IMG/VR virus record: IMGVR_UViG_3300024999_000073
Location: 18,287 to 82,286 of that record
Length of the DNA stretch: 64,000 bases
DNA from: a virus
Strand: one strand, 5' to 3'
This document shows, in pieces, positions 6,410 to 58,636 of the stretch. Under the pieces are notes generated by a model. That model worked only from the letters and a program-made list of their open reading frames with translations. It was not told where the DNA came from and did not search any database. Position 1 is the stretch's first letter; each line of letters starts with the position of its first letter. Made by a program: the position numbers and the translations under genes.

Positions 6410-6535
6410 ATTATATCATTTAGTATGAGTGGATAAGAAGCAATTTTAGGGGCTAGTTGTTATCTTGTGAACATTCGCATAATTGGAAACTGGCCCTTGC
6501 CCGGTTAAAAACTGCCCCTAAATCTGTGTTAGAAT
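6410..6535. promoter_or_regulatory. Symmetric divergent promoter pair centred on palindrome TGTGAACATTCGCA (6466-6479)
   Basis: TG-A-TATAAT on - (6415-6410) and TG-T-TAGAAT on + (6530-6535), each 64 nt from the palindrome start on its own strand. Confidence 0.75.
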
Positions 6536-6565
6536 TGAACATGAGTTCAGAGAGAGAAAATCCCT

Positions 6566-7480
6566 ATGCTTCATAGTTATCCTTCAGTATATGCAATCGG
6601 CCATAAAGCAATCGAGGAAATATTTCTCGGTCCCGTATTAATCGAGGAGAAGATCGACGGGAGTCAATTTTCCTGGGGAATTATTGATGATGAATTGCAA
6701 TGCCGTAGTAAGGGCAAGCAGTTTATTCTTGACGCGCCAGAGAAGATGTTCCAGCGTGCGGTTGACTTTGTACAGGAAATCGCACCAATGTTAAAACCTG
6801 ATTGGGTTTACCGTGCCGAGTATCTACAGAAACCCCACCATAATACACTTGTCTATGATCGGGTCCCTGCACATAACCTGATTATCTATGACATCAACAC
6901 TGGCCTGGAAGATTACATGCCCTGGGAGAAGAAACGCGATGAAGCTGCGCGGCTGGGTCTAGAATGTGTGCCGTTTTTCTATCATGGCATAGTTCAGAAC
7001 TTCGATATGTTCAAAGATTTTCTTGACCATGTTTCTTGCTTGGGTGGTACAAAGGTGGAAGGCATTGTAGTAAAAAATTATGCGCTTTTCACCGCCGAGA
7101 AGAAAGTCGCGATGGGGAAATACGTCTCCGAGTCTTTCAAAGAAATCCATACCGGGGAATGGCGCAAGGCCAACCCAACAAGCGGCGACATTGTAGATAC
7201 GCTGATCGTAGCCTATCGGACGCCTGCTCGTTGGCAAAAGGCCGTTCAACACTTGCGCGACGCTGGAAATCTGGAATGGTCTACACGCGATATTGGCAAT
7301 CTTATCAAAGCCGTACCAGAGGATGTTCTCAAAGAATGTGAGGATGAAATCAAACAGAGACTTTTTTCTCATTTCTGGCCTAAAATTAGACGCGGCATCA
7401 CCGCAGGCCTGGCAAACTGGTATAAAGACGAATTGGCAAAATCTGCATTTGAATCTCACGATGAAAGTCCGAAACCGTGA
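6566..7480 (+). CDS. RNA ligase (Rnl2-like nucleotidyltransferase)
   Basis: Motif I EEKIDGSQF, motif IV EGIVVK, motif V KYVSESFKE. Confidence 0.75.
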   Translation: MLHSYPSVYAIGHKAIEEIFLGPVLIEEKIDGSQFSWGIIDDELQCRSKGKQFILDAPEKMFQRAVDFVQEIAPMLKPDWVYRAEYLQKPHHNTLVYDRVPAHNLIIYDINTGLEDYMPWEKKRDEAARLGLECVPFFYHGIVQNFDMFKDFLDHVSCLGGTKVEGIVVKNYALFTAEKKVAMGKYVSESFKEIHTGEWRKANPTSGDIVDTLIVAYRTPARWQKAVQHLRDAGNLEWSTRDIGNLIKAVPEDVLKECEDEIKQRLFSHFWPKIRRGITAGLANWYKDELAKSAFESHDESPKP

Positions 7481-7492
7481 TATACTACCTCT

Positions 7493-7603
7493 GGTTGCCG
7501 CCCACAAAGAAAACAATACCATTACTGTAGGAATCAGCCTCGTCGGATGGTGTTGTTTTTCCTGGGTGGCAATCTAGGAACATTAACTTCTACCGATGAG
7601 GCT
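7493..7603 (+). ncRNA. Structured leader (long hairpin plus potential pseudoknot) upstream of the replication initiator
   Basis: 7493-7504/7563-7574 (12 bp), 7510-7522/7547-7559 (13 bp), loop 7536-7546 pairs with 7593-7603 (11 bp); TGnTATACT at 7478-7486. Confidence 0.55.
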
Positions 7604-7633
7604 TTTCCATTTCTGGAAGAAAGGTATATCACC

Positions 7634-9590: not shown

Positions 9591-9805
9591 GTGTGCATTG
9601 CAGAAAAGCGCGCCGCTTATTTTTGTTATGGCACCTTGATAAAGGCCATAGAGCAGGCTATCTGGCGCACGTCAAAGCCTGTCCAGATTGCCAGGCAGAA
9701 TTAAATCGCTTGATGGAACAGGAACGAGCAAGATTGCCGCTAAATCCATATACATTGGAGCAAGAAGCGACGCTAGACGAAGAATTGAAAGGAAATGAGG
9801 TATGA
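9584..9805 (+). CDS. Small zf-HC2 (anti-sigma-type) zinc-finger protein
   Basis: C...HVKACPDC (HxxxCxxC). Confidence 0.5.
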   Translation: MVGVHCRKARRLFLLWHLDKGHRAGYLAHVKACPDCQAELNRLMEQERARLPLNPYTLEQEATLDEELKGNEV

Positions 9806-10056
9806 GTCCAAGAAAAGAATATGAAACTGGTATTGAAGCACGCAAGAATATAGTTGCATACATTCGCAGATTTACAGCCGTAAATGGCTACTCTCCGAAT
9901 TTGCGTGAAATCATGGATGCATGTGATTTATGCAGCACATCTCTAGTCAGCCATCATCTTATAAGATTACGAGAAGCAGGCGTGATTTCGTATAAAGACA
10001 AATTAACAAGAACACTACGCGTAATCGAACGAGAGGCAGAAATTGGACAAACCTGA
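9802..10056 (+). CDS. LexA-type winged-helix DNA-binding protein (no peptidase domain)
   Basis: NGYSPNLREIMDACDLCSTSLVSHHLIRLREAGVI...RTLRV. Confidence 0.8.
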   Translation: MSPRKEYETGIEARKNIVAYIRRFTAVNGYSPNLREIMDACDLCSTSLVSHHLIRLREAGVISYKDKLTRTLRVIEREAEIGQT

Positions 10057-11597: not shown

Positions 11598-11664
11598 CCT
11601 GGAAAGCATCGGTAGCGATAATGGCAGATGAAATCTGCGAACATTCGCAGGAATAGAGGCTGAA

Positions 11665-11949
11665 ATGGCGGAGAAATATAAGTATCATTGTACTCCAGTA
11701 CCAGGAACGTTGTGCAAAGAAGAAGCACAATGGCTGGTTTGGTTCGAGAAATGTGGTAATTTATACACATACATGTGTACTCATCATGCAACGGAAGCGA
11801 TGAAAAACGGTGTGGATGGCTACGCTGTGATTTGTGTTCGCTCTTTTGAAGATGCTGTGTGCCTGTGTATGCCTGACATTGAGAAGGCCATAGAAATATT
11901 CCTGAATTCAGTTGAGAGCGCCGTAGGATTTCAAAAGCATGGACGATAA
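11665..11949 (+). CDS. Hypothetical Cys-rich protein
   Basis: GAGG RBS; overlaps the methyltransferase start. Confidence 0.45.
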   Translation: MAEKYKYHCTPVPGTLCKEEAQWLVWFEKCGNLYTYMCTHHATEAMKNGVDGYAVICVRSFEDAVCLCMPDIEKAIEIFLNSVESAVGFQKHGR

Positions 11950-14560
11950 AATCTTGCAAGACTTTTTAGAGCAATTCAAAGCCGAGGATTGGTATGGCCT
12001 ATATCATGGAGGCTGGAAGAACGAAGTAATACCGGCGTCTCAAAGCCATCCCGCGAAATTCAGCCGTCGCTTGATTCGTCGTATCTACGAACATGCCTTT
12101 GCGGAAGGCTGGTTGAAAAAAGGATTGCGAGTGCTGGATATTTTCGGAGGCGTCGCACTTGGAAGTTTGGACGCCATGCAGATGGGATTGAATTGGGTGG
12201 GCGTAGAGATAGAGCCGCGCTGGGTTGCATGTGGGATGGGCGGCCATTGCGACGGCCAACCCATCGTAGTTGAGGCCAAACCTGGGATTCGAGGTTGGTA
12301 TGTGGTGTACAGAGATGGCGAGAACGGAAACTTCAGCGAGTTCTACATCGGAGTAAACGGAGAACCCAGTCAAGACGAGCCGGATGGCGAGGGTTTCAAG
12401 TCACGCAAAATCGCGCTTGCATTTGCGCATGAACTTGACATGGACGGCCTGGAGCTACGCAAGGTCAGGGAGGGTCAGACTTTCGCCAAAGCCTCTTTAT
12501 GTGGGAACAAAGAAAAGCACGAAGCGCACGAGATCAAAGGCAATATCCAGCTTTGGAACGATAAATATGCGGGAATGCCACATTGGGGAACTGCGGTCTT
12601 ATTGAAAGGCGACTCTCGCAAGCTCAGGAAAGTATTGGCCGAGAATGGGCATCTAGGGAGCCAGGACATGAGCGCGAGTAGCCCTCCATTCCAGGAGACT
12701 AATGCCGATGGAGGCTGGCAAATGTTGGGAAAGTACGCCCGCCAGGGCCGCTTGACGGTAGACCAGGTGAAAGGTAAATCGGACAAATCCTACCCTTCTT
12801 GGGAAGAAAGCAGAGATACAGGCCCCGGAGACGCAGCCGAGAACCTGTCAAATTTTGACAACGGCGATTACCAGGCGATAGTTAGCTCACCCCCTTATGC
12901 TGAGACCGGATTGCGCAACATTGACGACAAGGCGGAGATAATCAATCAAGGACGTAGAGAGCGCGGGGAAGTGCAAGGTGGGACGGGCAGAAGCGGGGTG
13001 TTAGGGCAATCGCTGATACAGGGAGACGGGTATGGATTGGCGCCCGAAAATCTAGGCAATCTACAGCCCGATGGCTTCGATGCCTGTCTTGCGTCACCTC
13101 CATACGCCCAGGCCAGGATAGAAGGGCAAGGCGACGAGGGAGCGTCGGGGTTACGCAACGAAGACGGAAGTTTTGTACGTGGGTCTGAGGGCTGGCAGAA
13201 GCGAGTAGAACTTGGCGACCGCTACGGCGAAACCCCCGGCCAACTTGGAAGTCTAGAAGCTGAGCATTTTGATTTTGAGGTAGGGAGTCCGCCATTCATA
13301 GCGCAGGGTGGGGGTGGGAATGTTACATCCACAGGAGGCCCATTAGCAGATGCAAGTATGATAAAGCGACATGGGGCAGGAAATTCTGCATCGATGGCTT
13401 ATGGGGAGGACTCAGCTAACCTGGCGGCGATGGATGGCGAGGGCTTTGATGATGCTGTGGAGAAATCTTGCGAACATTCGCAGGATAATGGGCAGCCGGA
13501 TTTAGCCCTTAGCTCTCCACCCTATGTTTCCGGTGGGCATCACCCAGATCAAACCGGGGCTTGGGGAGGGCGACTCAACGTTATTGATGAGAGCGAGGCT
13601 AGTTACGGCAAACAGATCGGGCAAATGGGGCAAATGGATGTTAAGGACTTTGATTTAGCCGCAGCCAGTCCGCCATTTAGTGAGAGTTTGAGCGGGGATA
13701 GGGTGATACCTGAAATAAGAGTAGCCAGAGCACGAGCAATGGGTCTTATAAGCGCGGCGGATGTATCCCCCATTGATTCAGAGAAATTTGGGGAACGTTC
13801 GCAAGAAATAGGCGGGGAGGCAGCCCAGCTTTCTCATATGGCAAATACCGAAGCAGATTTCGACCTCTCCGCGACTTCTCCTCCATACGCGGACTCGGTG
13901 AACTCTGAGAAATCGGGGATAGATTTCAGCAAAGGCCAGTTGGATTATCCGGGCCGGAAACTACACGAATCACGTATTACCATGCAAAAGCGGCACCACA
14001 ACGACCGCAATTATGGACAAGAGCCGGGCCAGCTTGGAGCTATGGAAGACAAAGCATTCGAGGGTTCGGTGTCAAGTCCTCCATTCGAGGCCAGCACCGG
14101 CGACCGTCCTAGTGCGAGCATACGCGCTACTTTCGATAGAGGCGAAACCGTGTTCGGGCCAGCGATGTTGAACGACAGCGGGTATGGTGCAGATAGTGGC
14201 AACATCGGTAATGACAGCGGCATGGACTTCTGGTCGGCGTCCAAGCAGATACTCCAGGAGCTTTTTTCCGTACTTCGTCCTGGGGCAAAAGCCATCTTCG
14301 TTTTAAAGCGATATATCAAGGATTCCAAGATTGTTCAGTTCCCGGCGCAATGGGCCTATCTAGCTGCTACAGTTGGGTTTATACCCCTGCATTGGCACAA
14401 GTGCTGGATGATCGAAGACAGAGGCACACAATATGACCTATTCGGCGGCAAAATAGAGAAGATCACAGCCAGGTACTCATTCTTCCGCAGACTGCACGCC
14501 AAGAAATACCCGCACCTGGAAATTCAATACGAAGATGTGATTTGTTTTCTTAGACCGTAG
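11939..14560 (+). CDS. DNA amino-methyltransferase (N4C/N6A type) with eight repeated SPP(Y/F) modules
   Basis: HPAKF, motif I LDIFGGV, GVEIE, GDSR, 8x SPPY/F, C-terminal VLRPGAKAIFVLK. Confidence 0.75.
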   Translation: MDDKILQDFLEQFKAEDWYGLYHGGWKNEVIPASQSHPAKFSRRLIRRIYEHAFAEGWLKKGLRVLDIFGGVALGSLDAMQMGLNWVGVEIEPRWVACGMGGHCDGQPIVVEAKPGIRGWYVVYRDGENGNFSEFYIGVNGEPSQDEPDGEGFKSRKIALAFAHELDMDGLELRKVREGQTFAKASLCGNKEKHEAHEIKGNIQLWNDKYAGMPHWGTAVLLKGDSRKLRKVLAENGHLGSQDMSASSPPFQETNADGGWQMLGKYARQGRLTVDQVKGKSDKSYPSWEESRDTGPGDAAENLSNFDNGDYQAIVSSPPYAETGLRNIDDKAEIINQGRRERGEVQGGTGRSGVLGQSLIQGDGYGLAPENLGNLQPDGFDACLASPPYAQARIEGQGDEGASGLRNEDGSFVRGSEGWQKRVELGDRYGETPGQLGSLEAEHFDFEVGSPPFIAQGGGGNVTSTGGPLADASMIKRHGAGNSASMAYGEDSANLAAMDGEGFDDAVEKSCEHSQDNGQPDLALSSPPYVSGGHHPDQTGAWGGRLNVIDESEASYGKQIGQMGQMDVKDFDLAAASPPFSESLSGDRVIPEIRVARARAMGLISAADVSPIDSEKFGERSQEIGGEAAQLSHMANTEADFDLSATSPPYADSVNSEKSGIDFSKGQLDYPGRKLHESRITMQKRHHNDRNYGQEPGQLGAMEDKAFEGSVSSPPFEASTGDRPSASIRATFDRGETVFGPAMLNDSGYGADSGNIGNDSGMDFWSASKQILQELFSVLRPGAKAIFVLKRYIKDSKIVQFPAQWAYLAATVGFIPLHWHKCWMIEDRGTQYDLFGGKIEKITARYSFFRRLHAKKYPHLEIQYEDVICFLRP

Positions 14561-18021: not shown

Positions 18022-18618
18022 TTACTCCATCAACCGGGCCACAGCCACTTCTGCGTAGTCTTTCTTGAGATGCCAGGCCAGGTTTTCCTGTGCATCATCC
18101 ATGAGACCGCTTTTCTGGTTATCGCTCCCGTAGTAACCCCAGCAGGAGTCCACAGACTCGCCGTTCTTATCCAGCAAGTCGTAACCGAACACATATCCGT
18201 TGACGTAATTCCCATAGACCGCGACATCAGCCTCCAGGCAGCCGATGGCACGTCTGCGTGTTTTTGCGCTGATGATCTTGCAACTGTACTCCTTCAAGAC
18301 TTCTTCGCGTTCCACGAAAATCACACCGACTTGCCCGCTGTCCCACGGATCCCTAAAGCCTGTTGTATTCAGAGCAATGCCAGAATGCTCGTACATATAC
18401 ACAGGCAGCCATATAGCGCCAGTGTCTTTGATATGCTCCATCACTTTATCTGCATTGCGAAAGTGGTGCTTATCCCCCAAGTCATAGCGGCTATGGAAAC
18501 AGACCAGAGTACCCAGGTTATCCCACTCCTCGCGTGGGTTGACCGGATTATCGTCCGTGTACACCTTGAGAATGTAACCGGACCCCATTTCAATCGTTTC
18601 GACCAAATTCTCGTCCAT
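18022..18618 (-). CDS. Conserved mobile-element hypothetical protein
   Basis: NPREEWDNLG, LPVYMYEHSG, WDSGQVG, SCWGYYG motifs; AAGGAGTCT RBS. Confidence 0.65.
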   Translation of the reverse strand: MDENLVETIEMGSGYILKVYTDDNPVNPREEWDNLGTLVCFHSRYDLGDKHHFRNADKVMEHIKDTGAIWLPVYMYEHSGIALNTTGFRDPWDSGQVGVIFVEREEVLKEYSCKIISAKTRRRAIGCLEADVAVYGNYVNGYVFGYDLLDKNGESVDSCWGYYGSDNQKSGLMDDAQENLAWHLKKDYAEVAVARLME

Positions 18619-18654
18619 TTCAGACTCCTTATTATCTTGCGAATATTCACGGAT

Positions 18655-25240: not shown

Positions 25241-25966
25241 CCGCGGGAAAATGCGGGCGTTATTAAAAAAGGGGTTTTAAGGGGGCATTTTGTCAATTTT
25301 TGACTCATGCTCCCTCACATATTATTAGGCGTCGACTACTTTTACGCCAGGGAAGGCTTCGGCGTACGAGACCTCGTGTTCGGACAGACAGGTCTCGAAC
25401 AAGTCAATAGCCTCATCCTGAGAGACAGGGATGAGCGTGTCCTGTTCGCCCTGCCAGCAGGTGAGATTGACTATGAAGTAATTGCCGTTTGGGGTGCGGT
25501 ACAGGAATTCATTGCGCCCGTGACGCTCGAAGTTATGACCGTCCCAGTATGCGTCATGGGCGATCAAAGTCGCCGTTTGGACGCTATAGCGTTTGCGGTC
25601 GATTATTCTTACAAAAGACTTAGGTGCGTGCATTACAACATCCTTTCGTTAGTTTGGTCTATGCCTGAATTGGACTGTGCCACTGGATTGAGTATATATC
25701 GCTACCGCCAGTTCGATAGCAGCGACAAGAAGTCGAAAGCATATTTTTGTATTAATCCATAAGCGCCTCCATATTCCAGTATCCGCATGGTGTTATTGTA
25801 TCACATTTACGAGAGGTTGTCAATTTATTGCCAGGTCTGGTTTTGCGGCATAAGCCAGGGGCAGAGGCAAACCACGGATCACGCAGATTACACAGATTTT
25901 TCTATTGATGTAGGTTCAATGTGATGTGGTCTCGAAAGCATGTGCGCCAAAAAATTTCATGTGGTT
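25241..25966. repeat. Fixed-length module copy 2
   Basis: Left motif 25241-25284; AAAAATTTCATGTGGTT at 25950-25966; spacing 717. Confidence 0.7.
25325..25633 (-). CDS. Conserved phage hypothetical protein
   Basis: IIDRKRYS...LYRTPNGNYF motif; AAAGGA RBS. Confidence 0.6.
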   Translation of the reverse strand: MHAPKSFVRIIDRKRYSVQTATLIAHDAYWDGHNFERHGRNEFLYRTPNGNYFIVNLTCWQGEQDTLIPVSQDEAIDLFETCLSEHEVSYAEAFPGVKVVDA

Positions 25967-28715: not shown

Positions 28716-29542
28716 TTTCGACTCCTTTTGAAATGGGAATGGGTAAGCGCACGCGTAGAGTCTCAATCCACGCGTACATGCTTGCCAATAGGGTGAAAAA
28801 ATACAACATGGTACAATTTTACCCTGTTTGAATTTGTGCCCTTTAAGCGTGAATGATACCCCAACCTGTAGCCAAAATCTGCTTTAATTTGCTATTACCC
28901 CCCATCTATGGGGTACTGTGCCTTGCCCTATGTTAATGTATTCATGTATTTTATAGATCACTATATGAGTTTTACTCATATAGTGCTACCAGGTGATACT
29001 TGGTGATACTGTTTTTCTCCAATACTCTAATCTTTCGTTCTATGGATTATACGTAGTTTGGCATATCACACCCGTTTTCTTTAACAATCACGCTTTTCTC
29101 GATCTTGTGGCTGTTTGACTCTCGTGTGTGCCTGTGTGCCTGGTACGTCGGCCCTGTGTGCTCCCCTCTTCTGTGTATGCTTGTGACCCTGTGACTCACC
29201 GAAACCCGTGAACGTTCGCACATATCGAACGAGTCATGCCACTATGGTGGCATTGACGCCGCACGCACAGCGCCCGCGCCCGTGCAGACAAGGGAGTCGG
29301 AGGCTAGGCCGCCCATGCGCATAGCACGAGTTAAAAACCAGGTCGAGAAAGCAAGCAAAGACCCTATAGAACGCCCTTGCGCATAGCGTGAGTCAATTTG
29401 GGGGTCAAAAAGCCAGAAGCGGGTATCACAGATCGCCCTTGTGCGTAGCGTGGATCGATTCTAGCATCAGAAAGGGGAAAGCACAACCTACAGTCGCCCA
29501 GAGAAGCAATCGCGGTAGAAAAGTGAGAGCAAGTCGGGTATA

Positions 29543-33978: not shown

Positions 33979-33992
33979 AGGTAACACAAATG

Positions 33993-35027: not shown

Positions 35028-35030
35028 AAC

Positions 35031-35639: not shown

Positions 35640-37322
35640 ATGCCTTATAGAATGCGTAAGCAAGGCGATAAGAAATACTGCATCTTCAACTCAGAGACAG
35701 GGGAAAATAAGGGTTGTAGCGACACCGAGAAGATGGCCGCCGCTCACATGCGTGCTCTTTACTCTCATAGTGACGATAAGAAAGAGCTTGCGGAGATCGA
35801 AACTGAGTTCCTTTCTGCTATCGCAGACTATGAAAAGGAGTCTGAAACTCCTTTCGATCCTGTAGTTCTCAAAGAAATCATCGACGCCAGTCCCGAAGAC
35901 CTGGAGAAGATGTCTCTTTTAGCTGACGCTTATATACCCTGGGCCCCGGCTAAGTCCTACTCTGAACTTGAGGAACAGGAGTCAGCTAGAGAACGTCTCT
36001 CTAAAGCCCTTAAACTCATTGCCCAGTTTCCTGATATGGCCCGCGAGCTTATTTTTGATCCCGAAACCCCGCAGAAGGCCGCCGCTATCGAAGACCTGGC
36101 CTCCCAACTCGCAGACCGTCTGGATAAACTCGAAACTCAACCAGCCGCTATAGAAGAGGATGGTTATGGGGAAAACAAGGAAACTCCGAGAAAGAAACAC
36201 AAATCCATCCAAGAGAATCTCGAAGAAGCTGTTATTGCTGTTTTGAAATCCGTGGGGTTGTACAAAGAAGCCCCTGCAGATGGCCTGATGGTCTGGAAAG
36301 ATACAGACTCCGGCCAATATCGTTGGTTCGCCCGCTATTCAACTAATTTTCGCGACAACGATAACCCTCCTGAGATTATTTCCGAACAGAGTCATCGCCT
36401 GTTCGTAGATAAAGTTGAAAAGGGACTCGCTCCCTTCCCCGAACTGTGGATTTGGCATGGTAAGTCACTTCGCATTGGCCGCTCTGCCTGGGTCGGTTAT
36501 GACGACGCTGGTTTTGCTATGTCCGCAGGAGCTTTCCTTCCGGGTTGCGAGGATGCCGCCGATTTCCTGGCGCATCAAAAGGATGTCGCTCTCAGTCATG
36601 GGATGCCCGTATCTACGATTAGGAGAGACCCATCCGATCCTACCATCATCATCGAGCACGAGACCAGGGAAATAAGCGTACTTCCGCGTTACGCTGCGGC
36701 CAATAAGCTCACAAGTTTTCACGCCTTGAAAGAGGAGGCAAACATGGCAATTCCTACTGAGCAAAGAAAAAAGCTAATCAACTGGGGTCTTCCTGAGGAT
36801 GTGATCGCGAAGGTCGAAGGTGTTAATCTCACCATCGCCGACAAGGCTGTCGAAGCTGGCGTCGAGCATAAAGAGAATAAGGACGCTGTTCCTCCAGACG
36901 CTGTCGCTGCACCCGTGGTTACAGAGACTATCGAAACTACGGGGTCTATAGACCACATCATTCCTGAGGCTGAGACTGTCCCCGATGAACTTCCGCCTTC
37001 TCGCAGGGAAGTCGCTGAAACTCTGGCGACTATCCTGACCGAGCAGACGAAAGTAATCGAGGCTCTGGCTATTCAAACCAAAGAGATGAATGCGCGTGTT
37101 GAGGCCCTGGAGATCTCCAATAAGGAGGCTGCGAGCAATCGCTTTACTCCATTGGCGTCTATTATGACCTCGCTCGGCCTGGATAAGCAATCTCCAATCG
37201 GCGCGGCTGGTGCAGAAGTAAAACCTGACGACCCACTCGCAAATCAGAAACCGAAGGAAGCCGCAGATGGGAACGCCGGTAAAATCGGCATCCCATTCAT
37301 TGACCAAATGTTGGTGGGGTAG
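35640..37322 (+). CDS. Prohead protease / scaffold
   Basis: N-terminal MPY...CSDT domain; WH...G, LSHG, EISVLP...AAN protease motifs; precedes MCP. Confidence 0.7.
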   Translation: MPYRMRKQGDKKYCIFNSETGENKGCSDTEKMAAAHMRALYSHSDDKKELAEIETEFLSAIADYEKESETPFDPVVLKEIIDASPEDLEKMSLLADAYIPWAPAKSYSELEEQESARERLSKALKLIAQFPDMARELIFDPETPQKAAAIEDLASQLADRLDKLETQPAAIEEDGYGENKETPRKKHKSIQENLEEAVIAVLKSVGLYKEAPADGLMVWKDTDSGQYRWFARYSTNFRDNDNPPEIISEQSHRLFVDKVEKGLAPFPELWIWHGKSLRIGRSAWVGYDDAGFAMSAGAFLPGCEDAADFLAHQKDVALSHGMPVSTIRRDPSDPTIIIEHETREISVLPRYAAANKLTSFHALKEEANMAIPTEQRKKLINWGLPEDVIAKVEGVNLTIADKAVEAGVEHKENKDAVPPDAVAAPVVTETIETTGSIDHIIPEAETVPDELPPSRREVAETLATILTEQTKVIEALAIQTKEMNARVEALEISNKEAASNRFTPLASIMTSLGLDKQSPIGAAGAEVKPDDPLANQKPKEAADGNAGKIGIPFIDQMLVG

Positions 37323-37356
37323 TAATACGCTCGTACCAACAGAAGGAAGGTTTTAC

Positions 37357-38805
37357 ATGGACGAACAATTGCTTCAAGTTCTGCAAAATCAACAGGCTTT
37401 GCTTGAGGCCCTGGCGGAGAAGTCGGCTGGCGTCCAGTTGAATGCCGGTTATCACCAGAAAGTCCCGGCTCAATTCCGCACGGCCAACCCTCTCCACGGT
37501 AGCAGCGGTCTGTTCAGCACTCCTGGCCTGGAGCGCGATATCATCACCGCCCATATCCGCCCCTACGGTATTGGCGCCAGTCTGCCTTTGATCCCCAGTG
37601 TCTACCAAGACCCTCGCTTTGGCAGTATCACTGGCTTTACCGCACCCGTTGGCAATCAACCTGTTCATGCCTGCGACGACGCCCCCTATGCTTACATGAA
37701 AGGGTGTAATCTCACCGCGCGCTTTGGCCGCATCCGCTATGACACTAACACTATCGACATCAACGAAGTCATGCTGAAATTGCACCGCGGCGATTTCACC
37801 GATCTGCGCTTGCGCGGGCAACTCCTGGGTATGACTGACATCGGCCCCAAAAATATCGATCAGGGCCAGGTTCTCAATGTGATGACCGCCGCAGAAATGG
37901 TGACGGTTGGCGTATTGTTCGAACGCGAACTCAGCCGCCAAATCTGGCAGGGGTCTTTCTTGATCGCCAATGAGTTCCCCGGCCTCGACGTTCAAATCGC
38001 AACCGGCCAGCGCGATGCCGACACTAACGCGCTTTGCACCGCTCTCGATTCTGACGTCAAGAACTTCAACTACCGCATGATCGAGACTAACTGCAATCTC
38101 ATGGTCACGTATCTGAGTATGCTCGAAGCCTATCTGCATACCAACGCCGAACGCATGGGTCTCATGCCCGTGCAGTGGATCATAGCCATACGCCCCGAAC
38201 TCTGGGAGCAACTCACGGCTTGCTGGCCGTGCGCTTATAACACCAATAAGTGCGCGAGTCAGTCTGAAACTGGCGCTACGACTGTGATCGATGGCCGTGA
38301 GATGGTAACTTTACGCGATGCTATGCGTAATGGCCTGTTCATCGACATCAATGGCCGCCGCTATCCTGTGATAAAGGATGTGGGCATCTTCGAGCACAAT
38401 AACGTCAATAACGAACACTTGCTCCCCGGCCAGTACGCATCCTCGATCTATATGGTCCCGCTCACTATCATCGGCGGAATGCAGGTGGCGTACCGCGAGC
38501 ACGTGGACTACCGCGAAGCTCAGCCCGATATCGCATTCATGCGCGGTATGGAAGGTTTCTGGACTGACGGCGGCGCCTATAACTGGGCGCTTGAGCAGAT
38601 CAAGTGGTGCTATAAGTTCGCCGCTAAGACTGAACAACGTGTGGTCTTGCGCACCCCGCAACTCGCGGGCCGCATCGACGCCGTTGGCTATCAGCCGCTG
38701 CAGCACTTCCGCGACAGCGATCCCACCTCAGCTTACCACTTCGATGGAGGCGTAAGTGTACGACCTGGTATGAGTACACCATACGCTATCTGGTCTGGGA
38801 GGTAA
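37357..38805 (+). CDS. Major capsid protein
   Basis: 482 aa after protease; C-ending codon bias of a highly expressed gene; EFPGLD...I and R...LAGRI motifs; followed by terminator. Confidence 0.8.
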   Translation: MDEQLLQVLQNQQALLEALAEKSAGVQLNAGYHQKVPAQFRTANPLHGSSGLFSTPGLERDIITAHIRPYGIGASLPLIPSVYQDPRFGSITGFTAPVGNQPVHACDDAPYAYMKGCNLTARFGRIRYDTNTIDINEVMLKLHRGDFTDLRLRGQLLGMTDIGPKNIDQGQVLNVMTAAEMVTVGVLFERELSRQIWQGSFLIANEFPGLDVQIATGQRDADTNALCTALDSDVKNFNYRMIETNCNLMVTYLSMLEAYLHTNAERMGLMPVQWIIAIRPELWEQLTACWPCAYNTNKCASQSETGATTVIDGREMVTLRDAMRNGLFIDINGRRYPVIKDVGIFEHNNVNNEHLLPGQYASSIYMVPLTIIGGMQVAYREHVDYREAQPDIAFMRGMEGFWTDGGAYNWALEQIKWCYKFAAKTEQRVVLRTPQLAGRIDAVGYQPLQHFRDSDPTSAYHFDGGVSVRPGMSTPYAIWSGR

Positions 38806-39421: not shown

Positions 39422-40015
39422 TTAGACGGAGGGGTTATTGAGAACATTTTTGACCTCCTCTGACTTCGGTTCGAACTCCGTGGCCTTCTTGTAGGGCAGG
39501 AACGGGTCCTTGTCCTCATAGTTCATCGGCATGATGAGCGCAAAGCAGCGCGCTCCCGGAATTCCACCACCAGCATCGATGCGCCCAACGATCTCTATAG
39601 GGGATTCTTTTGTGAAAACCCTCAGCAACACTGGGCCTGTCATGCCAGATATGGTCTCCCTGAGAAACTTGACGTCCACGGCGACGACGATCGGTTCTTC
39701 TTTCCGCTGCGCTATCCTGGCAATGTTCGGGTATTCCATACTATACATGCTGTAATCATAGGTCTCCAAGTACCTGCCTATGCAAAGAACCCTTTGTGTA
39801 CCGTTCTGGAGAAGCGATGGGGGTAGTAATGCCTTCGTCTCGACAGCGTGGACGAAAAATCCATTCGTTGACTCTGCGATACCTTTCTCGCAATTTATGT
39901 TCACGCATTCCAAACGTGGACGGTAATGATCTTTTGATGTTGCTTTCAATAGCCAGCGCATAATACGCGCCGCTACCGGACTTAGCTTTACAATACTCTT
40001 GAGTTCGTGTTCCAT
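39422..40015 (-). CDS. DNA polymerase III beta-clamp-like protein
   Basis: RPRLECV...STNGF...YPNIARI...VDVKFL...ALIMPM. Confidence 0.55.
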   Translation of the reverse strand: MEHELKSIVKLSPVAARIMRWLLKATSKDHYRPRLECVNINCEKGIAESTNGFFVHAVETKALLPPSLLQNGTQRVLCIGRYLETYDYSMYSMEYPNIARIAQRKEEPIVVAVDVKFLRETISGMTGPVLLRVFTKESPIEIVGRIDAGGGIPGARCFALIMPMNYEDKDPFLPYKKATEFEPKSEEVKNVLNNPSV

Positions 40016-40051
40016 TTTTGTTTGCCTCTTATCTTGCGAATGTTCCCGCAT

Positions 40052-42317: not shown

Positions 42318-42572
42318 TTAGGTCTCTTCTTTATAGTGGTAGAAAGTCTCCGCTACTAGGTGGAAATAGGCCAGTACCTTGACGGGAATTGTGGGGATGC
42401 GCCCTCTGACATAATCGTTGAGGAACTGGACGCTCATCCCGCAGGCTTTGGCAAACTTGCGCTGAGACCCCATCTTTTCGATCTCAAGCCAAACCATAGC
42501 AGCGACATCGACAGTGGACAGAATAACGTCAACAAGTACCTTTTCTTCAGCTTCGGTATGTGTATGCGCCAT
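42318..42572 (-). CDS. XRE-like HTH protein
   Basis: SQRKFAKACGMSVQFLNDYVRGR. Confidence 0.65.
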   Translation of the reverse strand: MAHTHTEAEEKVLVDVILSTVDVAAMVWLEIEKMGSQRKFAKACGMSVQFLNDYVRGRIPTIPVKVLAYFHLVAETFYHYKEET

Positions 42573-42578: not shown

Positions 42579-43043
42579 TCACTCGTCATCGTTGGCTATG
42601 ATCTGGCAGGCGAAGTTCAAAGCCCGCCCAAGAGCAATTTCACGGCCAATCTTGCAATTGTAACTATCCTTAACAGAGCAGACCGCGGTTCCGCCATACA
42701 CATATTGGCCTTGATTTCCAACAATGATCGAGACTTCAGTCAAGCCGCCTCTGGTTTGCAAAGTGCCACTATTGTCGTGTTTTGTCTTTTTGCAGCGCAT
42801 CTGGCGCTGAAGCATAAAGACTGGACGCCCTTTGGTATCCACTCCAATGCCATATCGCCGGTAATGTTCGACAGTAATATTCCAGATCACGCAGTCCGAT
42901 GGAATTCGTCTCAACAGGCGTGTCTCTTGGGTATACAGCGGAATGACTCTACGCAGCATTTGGTGTCCATCGAATGTTACGATTTCATTCTTGTCTTTCT
43001 TTACTAGCTCAGGTTGCTCGTCCACTTCTTTCTCCTTTATCAA
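42579..43043 (-). CDS. Hypothetical phage protein
   Basis: GTAVCSVKDSYNCKIGREIALGRA motif. Confidence 0.55.
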   Translation of the reverse strand: MIKEKEVDEQPELVKKDKNEIVTFDGHQMLRRVIPLYTQETRLLRRIPSDCVIWNITVEHYRRYGIGVDTKGRPVFMLQRQMRCKKTKHDNSGTLQTRGGLTEVSIIVGNQGQYVYGGTAVCSVKDSYNCKIGREIALGRALNFACQIIANDDE

Positions 43044-43333
43044 CTGTCTCCATACTCTTGAGGATGTCCTGGATGCCCTTCGATTCTTTCACTCAAATCT
43101 TCACTCTGATTGTCTTGCGAAGCCTTGATGAGTGTTCGAGTCCATTCGATCTTTCGAGACGCCTCGAAGTTTCCACATTTGTCGCAGAACATCATGAACG
43201 TCTTTGGCGGCACAAAGCCATATACGCTGACATGTTCTCTCGAATGCCCATACGGGCATCCTGGAAGATAATAGAGATAATGATCTCCCAAGTATTGCTT
43301 TATCAGGGTGTCCAATTCACTAAAATAGCCCAT
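43040..43333 (-). CDS. Hypothetical Zn-binding protein
   Basis: CPYGH...CDKC. Confidence 0.5.
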   Translation of the reverse strand: MGYFSELDTLIKQYLGDHYLYYLPGCPYGHSREHVSVYGFVPPKTFMMFCDKCGNFEASRKIEWTRTLIKASQDNQSEDLSERIEGHPGHPQEYGDS

Positions 43334-43384
43334 AGCTCACCTAATTTAATTATGCGAATGTTCGCATATTATCATTCGAGATGC

Positions 43385-44114: not shown

Positions 44115-44357
44115 CTATCCGTCTCTAGATTCTCGTACATAAGCTGGTTGTCGTGTAACTTCCATAGCGAGTTTCACACGCGGGCACGTCATCCGGTCTT
44201 GCTTGAAGCCTAACTTCTTGTAGATCGCACTCATGTGGTTCTTGACTGTGCCAGGCTGGATATTCAATATCTCAGCGATTGCATTGTTGGAATATCCATA
44301 AGCTACCAGGCCCGCAATCTGGTGCTCGCGCTTAGATAAATCGGTGAAGTCGCTCAT
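44115..44357 (-). CDS. LuxR/GerE-type HTH protein
   Basis: LSKREHQIAGLVAYGYSNNAIAEILNIQPGTVKNHMSAIYKKLG. Confidence 0.85.
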   Translation of the reverse strand: MSDFTDLSKREHQIAGLVAYGYSNNAIAEILNIQPGTVKNHMSAIYKKLGFKQDRMTCPRVKLAMEVTRQPAYVRESRDG

Positions 44358-44712: not shown

Positions 44713-44782
44713 ATCATATCACAATAACAGGCGGGTTTCAGGCCAGTTTCTGATCTCCCGCACAATCTTGCGAATGTTCACC
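44713..44782 (-). promoter_or_regulatory. Palindrome-associated promoter
   Basis: Palindrome 44769-44782; TG-A-TATGAT starting at 44718 on - (offset 64). Confidence 0.65.
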
Positions 44783-45195
44783 GATTACATCTCCGGCTGT
44801 AAGTTGTGGCAAGTCCGCATCCCGCCAGGTGCCATCGATGATATTCATGGCTTCATCCATCGCAGCCAGAACCGCTTTCATTGTTGCTGTTTTTCCACAT
44901 GCGCGTTCATAAACTACGTGAATGCGAATGTTCACGGGTTTGTTCTCCGGCTGATAGCTGGGGCACATCCGCATCTCTACATGTGCCTTCAATGATAACA
45001 AATGTGTCTTCAATGATAACAAAACCTTCCCGTATTGCAGCTCCTACCGGCGATACTCCCCATCGAATATGAAGATCGGGTTGCTGATCCCATCGATATA
45101 TAGTCGGATCATCTGTATCTGGTACAGCCCAAAATTTTTCAAAGAAATATGAGGGAATGCCGAAAGAACGGGCAATGAGTTCTCTGCAAATTTCA

Positions 45196-46002
45196 TCAAA
45201 ATCCATTGGGGAACTCCTGTACGCGCAAATCCTCAGGCCATTCAGCGGGATCGGTGCGCTGATCCGGCCAGCCCCCAAGCTGTTTAACGTATGCTTTGAC
45301 TTGCGCCTCCCTACATTGGTTAAGGATACTCCGCGCCCAATCCAAGTTCATCGGACGCGCGCCAGGGCCACTCTCTCCGCCAATAAGAATCCAGTCTATC
45401 GAGGCATCGGGATCAGAGACGAAACTTTGAAATGTCATCGTCATTGGCCCGTTGTTCTCAAAACCGTCTGGCTGGATGTATGACCAGTTCTCTGGAAGTT
45501 TTACCAGCCCCAACATCGGCTCGACGCTCACGAACCTAACCAATGCTGGGGTTTGTAGCAACAATGGTATGCGCTCATCTGCCCGTTTTTGATTCTCTGC
45601 GGTAACTCCTAACCAAACATTAGGCTGACCATTACTCCAATCAGGAGGCAAACAAGTATCCATACGCTCTGGCCTCTTGGTGAGAATGAGGAACAAATGT
45701 TGTGAACATTCACGGATTATGTCCCAGGCCTCTTCCCGCCAGGGATCAGCCTCTTCGATAAAGAAATCGCTCCAAGAGCACACAAACCAGCTATGCGGTT
45801 CCTTTGTTCGTAAGGGTAAATTGAATGTGGCAGGCTTCGAGCGCACTACCACCGATGGGTCTTGCCCATAACGTTTCTTCTCGCGATACATGTAACATTT
45901 TTCACAGGCAGGGCTGATTGGATGACAACCCTGCCAGCAATTCCAAGTGCCGCCGATATAACCCGGTACGTTTGCCCATCCGATACTGGTCACTTTACCC
46001 AT
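45196..46002 (-). CDS. DUF5131 (phage Gp37/Gp68, radical-SAM-like) protein
   Basis: GCHPISPACEKCY, ILTKRPER, WLGVTAENQ, SVEP, GGESG, KQLG. Confidence 0.85.
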   Translation of the reverse strand: MGKVTSIGWANVPGYIGGTWNCWQGCHPISPACEKCYMYREKKRYGQDPSVVVRSKPATFNLPLRTKEPHSWFVCSWSDFFIEEADPWREEAWDIIRECSQHLFLILTKRPERMDTCLPPDWSNGQPNVWLGVTAENQKRADERIPLLLQTPALVRFVSVEPMLGLVKLPENWSYIQPDGFENNGPMTMTFQSFVSDPDASIDWILIGGESGPGARPMNLDWARSILNQCREAQVKAYVKQLGGWPDQRTDPAEWPEDLRVQEFPNGF

Positions 46003-47545: not shown

Positions 47546-47809
47546 TCATTGCCTATCTCCATATTCATCAAAGTTATAATCATAAGCAGCCGCGCCTGGA
47601 GTCTCTTTCTCCTCCAATTCGCCGCTCTTGAATGCTTCTACGGCCCGGACGTAATCCGGGAAGATCGAACGCAGTAGCTCTTTATTGCCTTTATCGGCAT
47701 ACAGAATTGCGCGAATGATATGCTCGAAGAAACCGCCAGGCATAAAACCGCGTGGAACACCTATAACATATAATACGTTACGTTCTACCATCGATAGAAT
47801 TTTCGGCAT
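47546..47809 (-). CDS. Hypothetical phage protein
   Basis: GGFF..II.A...AD..N motif; GGAGG RBS. Confidence 0.55.
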   Translation of the reverse strand: MPKILSMVERNVLYVIGVPRGFMPGGFFEHIIRAILYADKGNKELLRSIFPDYVRAVEAFKSGELEEKETPGAAAYDYNFDEYGDRQ

Positions 47810-47964
47810 AGGGCCTCCTATTCATTCTGCCTCTCTTTGATTGATTTCCGCACTCCCTCTGGCTCGGCGGCATTATGTACGCTCTCATTTAGTTTGCACG
47901 GCTATTTGGAGGTTCGCCGCCGAGCCATCACCAAAGGAGTCTATCCGATTGCTCGGACAGTGGC

Positions 47965-48090
47965 ATTATAGCCGAAAAGTACGGCGATTTTCAGATGAAT
48001 TTCCACGAGTTTTTCAATTCTGCGAATATTCCCACAATTATAAAATTACCCCAGATTTCCTCTTTTGATGTTCGCTTTCTCCTGTATAAT
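47965..48090. promoter_or_regulatory. Symmetric divergent promoter pair centred on TGCGAATATTCCCA (48021-48034)
   Basis: TATAAT on - at 47970-47965 and on + at 48085-48090, both offset 64. Confidence 0.75.
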
Positions 48091-55717: not shown

Positions 55718-55726
55718 GAGGCTACT

Positions 55727-56842
55727 ATGAGAGTAAAAATGCACGATCTGACCTTGTTAGAGAAGGACATTAACGAGGAGTTTCTCTCCACGATTGCGGC
55801 TGAGAGGACTTGTAACGTCATCAAGAACGGCGTTTACTTGAAAGGCCCGCAGAACGCGGCTTTCGAGCAAGAGTTCCTACAAACCATCCTCGACTTCAAT
55901 GGGACCGGGATTTCTGCTATGGGCGTAGGCAATGGTTTCGATGGCCTGCAGATCGCCTTGCGTTCGCTTGGAATCGGGCGCGGCGACGACGTACTCGTGC
56001 CCTGGAATGCGCCGCTGCCTGTATGGATGGCGGTGACGATCACCGGCGCTCGTCTTATTCCATTGTACGCAAACGTTTGGGGCGTAATTGATGAAGATAG
56101 CATTCAGAAGATTACCCAACGTGTTCAAGCGATCATCGTTGTTCACATGTATGGTTATCCCGCGGATGTAGATACTATTCGATCTGTTTTACCAAAAGAG
56201 GTAACAATCATCGAAGATTGTAGCCATGCTCATGGGGCTGAGATCAACGGTAAAAAGGTGGGAACATTCGGAGATATTGCTGTGTTCTCATGCTATCCCA
56301 CAAAGCCATTAGGCGCGCTCGGAGACGCGGGAGTGATCGTTGCTCCCACCAAGCAGATTGAAACTATGCGAATGATCGCAGAATATGGTGGCGGCTATTT
56401 CAGGGGCATTAACTCACGCCTGGATGAACTACAGGCGGTCTATCTGCGCCTCAAGCTCCCCTATGTTGAGAAGTGGAATGCAATGCGCGCTCATAACGCC
56501 GAATTCTACTGGGGACGTCTGAAAGACCTTTACAATTCCATCAGCATGATTTTGCCAGCAAAACACCCCGGCCACGTATGGCACCAATTTGTGATACTTC
56601 ATGAGAAGCGTGATGAGTTGAGGCGGTTCCTGTCCGAGCGCGGTATTGAGACAGGAATCCATTACGATCCGTTCCCGCCTAACACGCCTGTTTACCGGCA
56701 TTCTGTATCAGCCAATGTAAAGAAAGATGCAGCATTCCTGTCATCTAAGGTACTCAGCCTTCCCGTAGGCCAGCATCTTGATGATGAGGATTTAGAATAC
56801 GTTTGCCAGGCGATTCTAGACTTCGAGGCGAAAGGCCACTAA
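55727..56842 (+). CDS. fdtB: DegT/DnrJ/EryC1/StrS aminotransferase (FdtB-like)
   Basis: GVGNG, EDCSHAHGA, SCYPTKPLGALGDAG, NSRLDELQA. Confidence 0.85.
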   Translation: MRVKMHDLTLLEKDINEEFLSTIAAERTCNVIKNGVYLKGPQNAAFEQEFLQTILDFNGTGISAMGVGNGFDGLQIALRSLGIGRGDDVLVPWNAPLPVWMAVTITGARLIPLYANVWGVIDEDSIQKITQRVQAIIVVHMYGYPADVDTIRSVLPKEVTIIEDCSHAHGAEINGKKVGTFGDIAVFSCYPTKPLGALGDAGVIVAPTKQIETMRMIAEYGGGYFRGINSRLDELQAVYLRLKLPYVEKWNAMRAHNAEFYWGRLKDLYNSISMILPAKHPGHVWHQFVILHEKRDELRRFLSERGIETGIHYDPFPPNTPVYRHSVSANVKKDAAFLSSKVLSLPVGQHLDDEDLEYVCQAILDFEAKGH

Positions 56843-57786
56843 TGGAAAATCTACGTGTACTCATGTTGCCACAGTTAGCCAGATTTGCGGGAGATGAATC
56901 TGGGATCAAAAGAGTTGTAGAGCATTACCACGCTCTTTCCCATGAGTTCTCTATCGAGTTCGTTGATATTCCTGTGGAAGAGGAAGAAAACTATGATGTG
57001 ATGGCTGTCCACGCCGGTTCTACGGACAGATGGCCCAAACACAAGCCTTTACTTTCGATCTGTCACGGCTTGTACTGGGATGCAGATTCTACAGCGGCGT
57101 GGCAATTCGACGCCAATGTGAATGTGATAGAATGTCTCCGCAGGGCTACGGTTATAACCGTGCCTAGCAATTGGGTTGCTGAAACGCTCAGGCGCGAACT
57201 GCGTGTGCAGCCTGTGATTCTTCCTCATGGCATAGACTGGGAGGCCTGGCAGCACTCAGAACCTAATGACGGCTACGTGCTCTGGAATAAAAACCGGCCT
57301 GGGGATGTGTGTGATCCAAAACCAGTGGCTGAATTGGCGGGAATGTTCACGGATTTACGCTTTATCACTACTTTTGCTCCAGAAGGAACTGAGTTGCCAA
57401 ACCTGGTAATCACGGGCGTGATCGGCCATGCGGTAATGAGAACGATGATACAACGCGCTGGAGTTTACCTGTCATCCACGAAAGAAACTTTTGGTATCGG
57501 TATCCTTGAAGCAATGGCCGCCGGAATTCCAGTATTAGGGTACGCATGGGGTGGTAATCTAGACCTGGTGAAACATGGGATCACGGGTTATCTGGCGGCT
57601 CCCAACAACCCGGATGATCTCGCTCAGGGGTTGCGGTTCTGCCTGAAACATCGGGGAATCTTGGGGCATAATGCCAGAATTGATGCCAAGAACTTCACCT
57701 GGCGCAACTCCATGACCATCTTGCGCTCAGCCCTCGATCAGTGTATGGCTATTTACCGAGACTATCAGCGCCCGATGTTCCTTTAG
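56842..57786 (+). CDS. GT4 glycosyltransferase
   Basis: ETFGIGILEAMAAGIPV. Confidence 0.85.
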   Translation: MENLRVLMLPQLARFAGDESGIKRVVEHYHALSHEFSIEFVDIPVEEEENYDVMAVHAGSTDRWPKHKPLLSICHGLYWDADSTAAWQFDANVNVIECLRRATVITVPSNWVAETLRRELRVQPVILPHGIDWEAWQHSEPNDGYVLWNKNRPGDVCDPKPVAELAGMFTDLRFITTFAPEGTELPNLVITGVIGHAVMRTMIQRAGVYLSSTKETFGIGILEAMAAGIPVLGYAWGGNLDLVKHGITGYLAAPNNPDDLAQGLRFCLKHRGILGHNARIDAKNFTWRNSMTILRSALDQCMAIYRDYQRPMFL

Positions 57787-58492
57787 AGCAAATATCAAAG
57801 AGGGGTTGTAGGTCGCTTTCGTCAAGCGAACGCCTGAACTCAATATCAAACTCGATCGCAGACGCTCTCGCAGACGCTCTACGAATGCTAAGCCACGCCT
57901 CGAACAACTGTCTGAGAAGTGCGCCGCCTATCCTTACGTTCGTGAATATGGTGTCGATGCCCATCATAGACATCTGATCCCCGAAGGTCTTGAGTTCCAT
58001 AATTTCTGTGTTCTCGATAAAGCTGCCAACGTCGAAGGCCACGCAGTCGATAAGTCCAGCCCTTATCAGAGTCCCGATCCTGGCGCTGATTGCCATCGTA
58101 ATATGGCTGGTAGAGTAGACAATCTTGATACAATCATTTGGGCAAAACCCGTTTGCAATATTACCTGCCGATGTGTAGGCATGGTCTAGGTAGCTATCTC
58201 CAATGGTGTAAGACCACAGGCACGGCACCAATAGGCCATCGCAGTCGTGGGCATCATGGGTAACGATCATGTATTGCGGCTGTTTTCGGACTTCTCTAAC
58301 AAGCATCTCAAGAGTCCAAGCAACATATTTGTTTACTACCTTATCGCCATCGGCCTTACGCTCCTTGCGCCATTCCCGGATTTTTGCCTGAGTTGGGTAA
58401 CGATCAAACTCAGATAGAGGCACACGCCCGATCCTGGGCTTGCAGGTGCGCCCGATCTCCTGTAGTTTTGTATCCAGATCATCAATATTCAT
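57749..58492 (-). CDS. Hypothetical protein inserted antisense in the glycosylation cluster
   Basis: 247 aa, GGAGG RBS, own promoter at 58516. Confidence 0.6.
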   Translation of the reverse strand: MNIDDLDTKLQEIGRTCKPRIGRVPLSEFDRYPTQAKIREWRKERKADGDKVVNKYVAWTLEMLVREVRKQPQYMIVTHDAHDCDGLLVPCLWSYTIGDSYLDHAYTSAGNIANGFCPNDCIKIVYSTSHITMAISARIGTLIRAGLIDCVAFDVGSFIENTEIMELKTFGDQMSMMGIDTIFTNVRIGGALLRQLFEAWLSIRRASARASAIEFDIEFRRSLDESDLQPLFDICSKGTSGADSLGK

Positions 58493-58510
58493 ACGAAGCC
58501 TCCGCCAGAG

Positions 58511-58636
58511 ATTATACAGGCAATCGGGAGATAAAAAGAGTGGGTTTTTGGGCTGTTTACTAATCCTGCGAATATTCCCACAATTAGAAGATTGCCTGTC
58601 TTAGCAGATAAAATTCATGCCTCAACCGAGTATAAT
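58511..58636. promoter_or_regulatory. Symmetric divergent promoter pair centred on TGCGAATATTCCCA (58567-58580)
   Basis: TATAAT on - at 58516-58511 and on + at 58631-58636, both offset 64; 21 nt identical to the 48020-48040 site. Confidence 0.75.

Follow-up and report, generated by a model that had tools for sequence, protein, structure and literature searches.

In a stretch of 64,000 nucleotides from the IMG/VR record IMGVR_UViG_3300024999_000073 (positions 18,287 to 82,286; hereafter the window), the 14-bp palindrome TGYGAAYRTTCRCA recurs at many scattered places, and some of its copies stand at a constant distance from putative -10 promoter boxes. Which kind of regulation would call for such an arrangement? 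The window makes up the final 64 kb of one contig, which has 82,286 bp and a G+C content of 48%. Its source is an uncultivated phage, with genes for a TerL-like protein, tail proteins, an RNA ligase, a replication initiator and a DnaC-like loader. A sequence-only reading of the window had claimed that the palindrome begins exactly 64 nt from seven -10 boxes, and had proposed that one activator drives back-to-back promoters from it. The transcription programmes of uncultivated phages are almost unknown, and here the sequence alone provides a wiring diagram that can be tested.

The surroundings of every site were scanned on both sides, at offsets from 14 to 139, for TATAAT-like hexamers with at most one mismatch in which A2 and T6 were kept. 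The offset of 64 was the sole peak. It holds 8 hexamers, compared with 0.26 expected per offset, and seven of these are located beside good sites. The eighth, an AATAAT beside an intragenic site with two mismatches, is probably a chance hit. When 19 random positions were scanned in 2000 trials, the largest peak was 4, as opposed to the 7 observed. The exact 64-nt distance at seven boxes was thus confirmed, and every coordinate that had been given for the sites and the boxes proved correct when it was rechecked.

Three of the sites (6466, 48021 and 58567) are symmetrically flanked by boxes on both sides, so that one central site between two outward promoters, as the sequence-only reading had it, is indeed found at three loci. 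The copy at 6466-6479 (TGTGAACATTCGCA) lies in the middle of the divergent region between a ribbon-helix-helix (RHH) gene on the left and the RNA ligase gene on the right. Its rightward box, TAGAAT at 6530-6535 (+), is preceded by TGT, as in an extended -10, and the ATG of the RNA ligase gene (6566-7480, +; PF09414/phrog_548) follows 30 nt on. The leftward box, TATAAT at 6410-6415 (-), is preceded by TGA and followed by a Shine-Dalgarno (SD) sequence, AGGAG, and, 18 nt on, by the ATG of the RHH gene (6215-6391). The copy at 48021-48034 (TGCGAATATTCCCA) is situated in the divergent region 47810-48067. On its right, TATAAT at 48085-48090 (+) heads a glycan cluster, which encodes GT2, GT8, GT10 and GT1/4 transferases, a sulfotransferase, several methyltransferases and a DegT aminotransferase. 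An in-frame ATG (48098) is found 7 nt past this box, and the message of the first gene of the cluster may be leaderless; the gene caller had put the start of this gene at 48068, upstream of the box. On the left, TATAAT at 47965-47970 (-) heads a leftward block of small genes, with a leader of about 155 nt before a gene of 87 amino acids (aa) at 47546-47809. The third copy, at 58567-58580 (again TGCGAATATTCCCA), occupies the divergent region 58493-58652. Here TATAAT at 58631-58636 (+) is followed by the SD sequence GGAGG and, 16 nt on, by the ATG (58653) of a 699-aa GT2/HHH protein, and TATAAT at 58511-58516 (-) by GGAGG and, 18 nt on, by the ATG (58492) of a 247-aa protein. For the latter and for a 210-aa protein there was no usable Atlas lead and no PHROGs match.

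The seventh box, TATGAT at 44713-44718 (-), belongs to the copy at 44769-44782 (TGCGAATGTTCACC), which lies within the 3' part of a small leftward open reading frame (ORF). It is preceded by TGA and followed by the SD sequence AGGAG and the ATG (44686) of a 69-aa gene, 26 nt on; a GerE-type gene comes next. At one further site, 35540-35553 (CGTGAATGTTCGCA), upstream of a 560-aa ORF (35640-37322), the box is one helical turn closer: TACAAT at 35594-35599 (+) has an offset of 54, with TGT before it and TTGCGC 17 nt upstream. True extended -10 motifs (TGn) are present at 6530, 6415 and 44718, the three counted before, and at 48085 and 58516 a TG abuts the hexamer out of register. The gene map is a heuristic call in which the exact starts of small genes are provisional. 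An SD sequence and an ATG are found 16-30 nt past the -10 in five of the seven cases, and judged by their sequence context the seven boxes look like real promoters.

A long inverted repeat was considered as the source of the symmetry and was rejected, because in no divergent region does one arm repeat the other in inverted form. The paired boxes have therefore been placed independently at equal distance from the palindrome. The window has four large divergent intergenic regions, and a copy is present in each. In the fourth, 28810-29563, the copy at 29207-29220 has no -10 box at offset 54 or 64. This region is free of genes over 754 nt, and TGTG/CACA-rich repeats flank the palindrome in it; it may be an origin or packaging region.

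The palindrome itself has the properties of a site read by a protein dimer. With at most one mismatch there are 18 copies of TGYGAAYRTTCRCA in the window compared with 0.20 expected, a 90-fold enrichment, and with at most two mismatches 32 copies compared with 2.8 expected. The 8-bp core GAAYRTTC, on the other hand, occurs outside the 14-mer context at chance frequency only. The operator extends to about 24 bp (AAWYn-TGYGAAYRTTCRCA-nRWTT), with AA at -4/-3, TT at +18/+19, and W, Y and R between. The flanks played no part in the selection of sites, yet they are symmetric and informative; those of site 6466 (TTATCT/TAATTG) fit the extended operator. At positions 3/12, the sites show 7 Watson-Crick, 6 T/G and 5 mismatched combinations. 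Because the half-sites vary independently, they point to a dimeric protein that reads two half-sites and not to a conserved stem. The central YR step and the A/T-rich centre would fit a site that is bent upon binding.

The palindrome could also act as a nucleic-acid structure (an RNA hairpin or a DNA cruciform) or serve as a target of DNA modification. The copies at 11636, 13469 and 43353 are able to form hairpins of -8 to -11 kcal/mol, and two copies of the site lie in a very large methyltransferase-like gene. However, the half-sites do not covary, the promoter-linked copies lie upstream of the presumed transcription starts, and those at 48021 and 58567 form no RNA hairpin. Targets of modification, moreover, are normally short and selected against, not 14 bp long and 90-fold enriched. 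An RNA hairpin was rejected due to the missing covariation and the lack of hairpins in promoter-linked copies, and a restriction or modification target was likewise rejected. We give explanations of this type next to no probability.

A consensus -35 is absent from all seven promoters, and their -10 boxes are strong and near perfect. A generic scan for -35/-10 pairs found no more pairs than were present in shuffled sequence. When the seven promoters are aligned on the -10, A/T-rich and G/C-rich blocks alternate from the palindrome to the -10, with A/T peaks near -59 to -53, -42.5, -31.5 and -19.5 and G/C troughs near -47.5, -37.5, -25.5 and -15. The A/T blocks have a period of 11-12 bp and a phase common to all seven promoters, and none of 2000 shuffles matched the observed spectral power. 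An A/T-rich stretch lies directly downstream of the palindrome, and two of the blocks, at about -42 and -52, fall where E. coli promoters have their proximal and distal UP subsites. The A/T phasing and the symmetric flanks add independent structure, and the observation is stronger than the sequence-only reading had it.

The phased blocks also suggest a reading without any activator. In this case, the promoters would be ordinary host promoters of the kind seen in Campylobacterota, made up of a -10 and periodic A/T, and the palindrome would be an architectural bend or boundary that is held in helical phase between divergent polymerases. The periodicity is present in all seven promoters, and AAYRTT, the middle of the palindrome, is another A/T-rich stretch that keeps the phase of the blocks. 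In C. jejuni, promoters indeed show a periodic A/T pattern that replaces the -35, plus TGnTATAAT (PMC3656092). However, the C. jejuni pattern is genome-wide and has no upstream palindrome, whereas that of the phage is strong only at the palindrome-linked promoters: nine other putative promoters of the same genome, most of them consisting of a -10 only, show weak A/T periodicity. A bend or boundary would need neither 14 conserved positions nor intragenic copies, and a G+C content of 48% with strong GGAGG ribosome sites gives no pointer to Campylobacterota. This explanation has little probability in our view.

If transcription is assumed to start 7 nt past the hexamer, the centre of the palindrome falls at about -69.5 at the seven promoters, close to the -70 estimated before, and at -59.5 at site 35540. 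Class I activation has its maxima at -61.5, -71.5 and so on. When a class I activator site in E. coli is directly followed by an UP element, activation is stronger and is tolerated over a wider window, about -68.5 to -72.5 (PMC4132738). With the assumed start, both distances are those of class I sites. We therefore regard activation as the best single explanation of the exact 64-nt register together with the case one turn closer. A dimeric DNA-binding regulator, most likely encoded by the phage, would bind the two-fold symmetric operator of about 24 bp and act from there as a class I activator. The A/T-rich stretch just downstream of the dimer would suit the alpha C-terminal domains of the host RNA polymerase, and the dimer would bring the polymerase to promoters whose -10 is near perfect and which lack a consensus -35. 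As the operator is symmetric, one dimer could serve an outward promoter on each side at three loci. The units headed in this way would be the RHH operon, the RNA ligase/replication block, the leftward small genes, the glycan cluster, the 247-aa gene and the GT2 gene. We infer the binding of a protein, the identity of the binder and the activating effect from geometry and analogy, and consider class I-type activation by such a dimer, with a GerE-type protein as the best candidate, nearly as likely to be right as wrong.

The sequence-only reading had assigned the replication, accessory and glycosylation genes to this control, and possibly the head genes. Promoters do head the RNA ligase/replication block, the leftward small genes, the glycan cluster and the GT2 gene. 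At site 35540 the TGT-TACAAT at offset 54 is present as described, but protease and capsid genes downstream of it were not confirmed, as no match in Pfam or PHROG was found. The large ORFs after TerL (32221-38805; 585, 213, 160, 560 and 482 aa) occupy the usual portal/head gene position; none of them matches a Pfam or PHROG family, and a search of IMG/VR for relatives of the putative capsid gene found none. As a whole, the virion module is highly divergent.

Several known systems resemble this arrangement in part. The CRP site is TGTGA-N6-TCACA and the FNR site TTGAT-N4-ATCAA. The half-sites of the phage palindrome (TGYGA-N4-TCRCA) are 2 bp closer together than those of CRP and shifted relative to those of FNR, and no CRP-family, cNMP-binding or CRP-type domain was detected among the phage proteins scanned. 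A site of the CRP/FNR family was rejected on both grounds. The likeness to CRP that had been noted before thus applies to the position and not to the half-sites, which are TGTGA-N4-TCACA and lack the N6 spacing. CRP class I promoters do share with those of the phage an A/T-rich, UP-like stretch just downstream of the activator site and an extended -10 (PMC4132738). The spacing varies between promoters of the CRP regulon, whereas it is identical in the seven promoters described here.

Two other operator families were also compared with the site. Known LexA boxes have forms such as CTGT-N8-ACAG or GAAC-N4-GTTC, and the phage site has a GAA-YR-TTC core without a spacer; a LexA box or SOS operator was rejected on this basis and because the LexA-type protein of the phage consists of the DNA-binding domain only. 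The symmetric lac operator (TGTGAGC-GCTCACA) is similar to the phage site, which has a central YR step where LacI-type operators have a central CG. LacI-type proteins have about 330-360 aa and a hinge helix. No LacI or periplasmic-binding-protein domain was found among the phage proteins scanned, and a LacI-family operator was rejected, although a LacI-type protein of the host may be the binder.

The site agrees better with operators of the LuxR/GerE type, i.e. palindromes of 14-20 bp with outer half-sites about 10 bp apart, and the phage encodes a protein with a GerE domain. A member of this group, TraR, has a LuxR-type helix-turn-helix (HTH). It acts as an activator at about -65 (class I-type) or -45, and a single tra box serves divergent operons (PMC3907764). 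TraR and the tra box of Agrobacterium Ti plasmids correspond to our proposal for the phage in that a palindrome is bound by an HTH dimer and the activator controls its own circuit (PMC3907764). They differ in several respects. The tra box is 18 bp long and has another sequence, there are four boxes as opposed to about 20 phage sites, and the divergent traA/traC pair is of class II type (about -45), unlike the position of about -70 in the phage. In addition, TraR carries an N-terminal signal-binding domain, whereas the phage candidate is an HTH of 80 aa only.

Four small phage proteins are candidate binders. By analogy with the systems above, we rank first the GerE/LuxR-type protein of 80 aa (44118-44357, -; PF00196, E 1.4e-15), which consists of the HTH only and whose best solved relatives are the DNA-binding domains of LiaR, VraR, NarL and DosR. 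Its gene is the second behind the palindrome-linked promoter at 44718, so activation would result in positive feedback. The alternative candidates are an 84-aa protein with a LexA DNA-binding domain and no protease domain (9802-10056, +; PF01726, E 8.8e-12; LexA PDB 3k2z, E 0.0017), the RHH protein of 58 aa (6215-6391, -; PF01402, E 2e-5), whose gene is the first to follow the leftward promoter of site 6466, and an HTH_3 (Cro/CI-type) protein of 84 aa (42318-42572, -; PF01381, E 2e-5). The search for homologues of the GerE-type protein returned only the protein itself and generic GerE domains, and for the LexA-like protein a single relative was found, 78% identical and on a contig of 981 bp.

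A second dispersed palindrome, GTCAANNNTTGAC, is present in 7 copies in the window (12847, 25292, 34415, 41129, 46984, 55314 and 59600), compared with 0.08 expected, and a further copy precedes the window by 6542 nt. Two copies stand between genes and the others within them, and their distance to -10 boxes is not constant. Another small DNA-binding protein of the phage probably has this palindrome as its operator, which means that at least two regulator-operator pairs need to be matched.

A number of points weigh against activation. The start sites from which the positions were calculated are assumed ones. Other putative promoters of the phage likewise lack a -35; its absence may be the norm in the host, as in Campylobacter, and does not necessarily reflect the need for an activator. 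The spacing in the phage, with zero variance, is stricter than in known class I regulons. An activator whose gene lies behind palindrome-linked promoters would require a basal start. Homologues of any of the candidates beside the motif were not found elsewhere, and the link between protein and site is therefore by analogy only. Finally, only 5 of the 19 good sites are promoter-linked, and the other 14 have no -10 at any fixed offset. An activator with a single role fails to account for these, and a second role, e.g. roadblock or repression, is needed.

These 14 sites are found between cistrons, inside genes or beside terminators. Four intercistronic sites lie in short gaps that separate co-directional genes. 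The site at 11636-11649 is 15 nt ahead of the ATG of gene 11665-11949 (+), and the remaining three are exactly 19 nt ahead of an ATG: 18638-18651 (gene 18022-18618, -; 3 nt past the upstream stop), 40035-40048 (two mismatches; gene 39422-40015, -; also 3 nt past the stop) and 43353-43366 (gene 43040-43333, -). Over about 45 nt, sites 18638 and 40035 have similar surroundings (CACTAAAT-site-AGATAA..GGAG), and the proteins encoded downstream are unrelated. Sites 5185 (5185-5198, beside a GC-rich hairpin) and 38954 are at convergent gene junctions with terminator-like hairpins adjacent. About ten sites are intragenic, among them 13469 (13469-13482, in an 873-aa methyltransferase-like gene), 16646, 16712, 44923, 45701, 56367, 60192 and 60981. 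Hardly any sites are present in the 18-kb tail block and in the leftward block from 18.7 to 29.2 kb.

Seven of the ten intragenic sites (13469, 16646, 16712, 44769, 44923, 45701 and 60192) have the same codon phase and encode x-Glu-x-Ser-Gln/His, on either gene strand. The pairs 16646/16712 and 44769/44923 fall in diverged local tandem duplications, 66 and 154 bp apart, with about 62% identity in the flanks, and a similar C-terminal peptide occurs in both ORF 44738-44935 and ORF 44907-45206.

The distribution of the sites is an argument for a global repressor or silencer. Such a protein would shut the divergent promoters by contact with the polymerase or by bridging of sites, and would block elongation between and inside genes. 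Most sites are indeed off promoters, and the four intercistronic ones, between a stop codon and the next ribosome site and in three cases at a fixed 19 nt from the ATG, are at a natural place for a roadblock. Proteins of repressor type (RHH, HTH_3, LexA DNA-binding domain) are encoded by the phage, and the RHH gene comes first behind a palindrome-linked promoter, a common arrangement in repressors that regulate themselves. P1 C1 and RK2 KorB, whose dispersed sites are comparable, are examples of one protein that coordinates several transcription units from many scattered sites on a mobile genome. Both are repressors. In P1 the operators lack symmetry and overlap promoters, and KorB belongs to the ParB family, of which no member was detected in the phage. 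Integrase and partition genes were also not detected among the proteins scanned, which represent a part of the genes. The geometry of the promoters, however, argues against repression. The site covers -76 to -63 in these seven cases and thus lies outside the core promoter, and simple occlusion requires neither an exact helical register nor a case exactly one full turn closer. We consider a repressor unlikely, although it has to be taken seriously.

If the class I-type activator is retained, the same protein would probably act as a roadblock at the intercistronic and intragenic sites, or have little effect there. With most sites off promoters, the regulator is probably dual-purpose. By analogy with RcsB, a regulator whose effect depends on position would cover the non-promoter sites as well. 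The RcsB box, TN(G/A)GAN4TC(T/C)NA, is found in promoters, 5' untranslated regions and coding regions, with activating and roadblock effects (PMC7913699). It is a pseudo-palindrome that shares the 14-bp frame of the phage site (T1, G4, A5, T10, C11 and A14), and differs at positions 3/12, which are R/Y in the RcsB box and Y/R in the phage site. The phage motif is also far more strictly conserved. RcsB, an enterobacterial host response regulator with a FixJ/NarL/LuxR-type HTH, binds as a dimer and has a receiver domain, whereas the phage candidate is HTH-only. We know of no fixed position near -70 for RcsB.

The match to the frame of RcsB-type boxes also raises the possibility that a host regulator, e.g. 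a response regulator with a LuxR/FixJ-type HTH, is recruited to activate from about -70 and ties the phage to a host signal. A host factor would remove the need for a phage activator that is made from promoters depending on it, and no phage protein can be linked to the site. However, about 20 copies, some of them intragenic, are a heavy investment for a borrowed factor, and the reversed bases at positions 3/12 do not fit the RcsB box. In a search of 185,579 genomes, the site followed by 50 nt and TATAAT gave 14 matches compared with about 17 by chance (our own estimate); they did not cluster by taxon, and none was related to the phage. Recruitment of a host factor is thus quite unlikely in our judgement.

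No relative that shares the motif came to light. A megablast search of INPHARED with 20 kb returned no near relative, and the closest TerL proteins, from Salinibacter phages, have 40% identity. The RNA ligase has thousands of homologues, with 68-72% identity in the closest relatives. A set of 160 loci, taken from IMG/VR and metagenomes, showed no synteny and no identity above 66%, and these RNA ligase loci contained 0 sites in 1.39 Mb and one site with one mismatch in 0.54 Mb. The site followed by 50 nt and TATAAT had 0 matches in viral contigs, and the two-armed pattern had 0 matches in metagenomes. For the exact 14-mer, only single, chance-like matches were found in IMG/VR, along with one contig (L190) that carries three loosely similar copies; none of these had a candidate regulator. 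L190 is an unrelated viral contig with TGCGAACATTCGCA once and TGCGATTATTCGCA twice within 9.8 kb (2149, 2402 and 8556), which may represent another operator family of the form TGCGA-N4-TCGCA.

DNA of the phage was recovered from groundwater, soil and sediment metagenomes (sequencing runs), and no RNA run is listed as carrying it. The population across other samples is nearly clonal, with 4 differences in 18.5 kb. One contig of low depth, from one run, has a T>C change at 60201 that alters a conserved T of the intragenic palindrome 60192-60205.

Taken as a class I-type activator with a dispersed operator, the regulator would be of a known kind, i.e. position-dependent; the layout is unusually rigid and symmetric, in a phage without characterised relatives. 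One operator with about 20 sites and eight fixed-distance promoters suggests that a single regulator coordinates replication, accessory and glycan-modification genes. In the most far-reaching form of this proposal, one small HTH-only protein of the phage would be a master switch, which fires nearly all non-structural operons through a twin-promoter unit used three times and throttles cistrons from the 19-nt sites. In each unit a central dimer, with phased A/T tracts on either side, would serve two outward polymerases, with 139 bp from start to start. This extended form is rather doubtful, but a real possibility. The repeated symmetric layout is a compact natural design for bidirectional control and could be rebuilt in E. 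coli, and if it is true that the 80-aa GerE-type protein is the regulator, this would be a minimal class I-type activator. Should the regulator instead be a repressor or a host factor, the regulon would still be a useful marker of the phage group, and the finding would be an ordinary one.

Some features of the window lie outside the palindrome-linked promoters. No tRNA genes were found. The sole near-consensus sigma-70 promoter in the window is at 25795-25823 (-). It reads TTGACA-17-TGn-TACAAT (11/12), sits in a 282-nt gap ahead of gene 25325-25633, and is likely an early promoter that needs no activator. Perfect TATAAT boxes that have neither a -35 nor a palindrome are present at 4483, 29539, 29051 (-) and 61392, and one is located 8797 nt before the window start. 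Such boxes precede genes for a small membrane protein, a small-terminase-like protein and an M23 peptidase, as well as one gene of the tail block. These boxes may form a separate, perhaps late, class of promoters. The motif GAACGTG stands just upstream of two boxes without a palindrome, namely that at 8797 nt ahead of the window and another at 16941.

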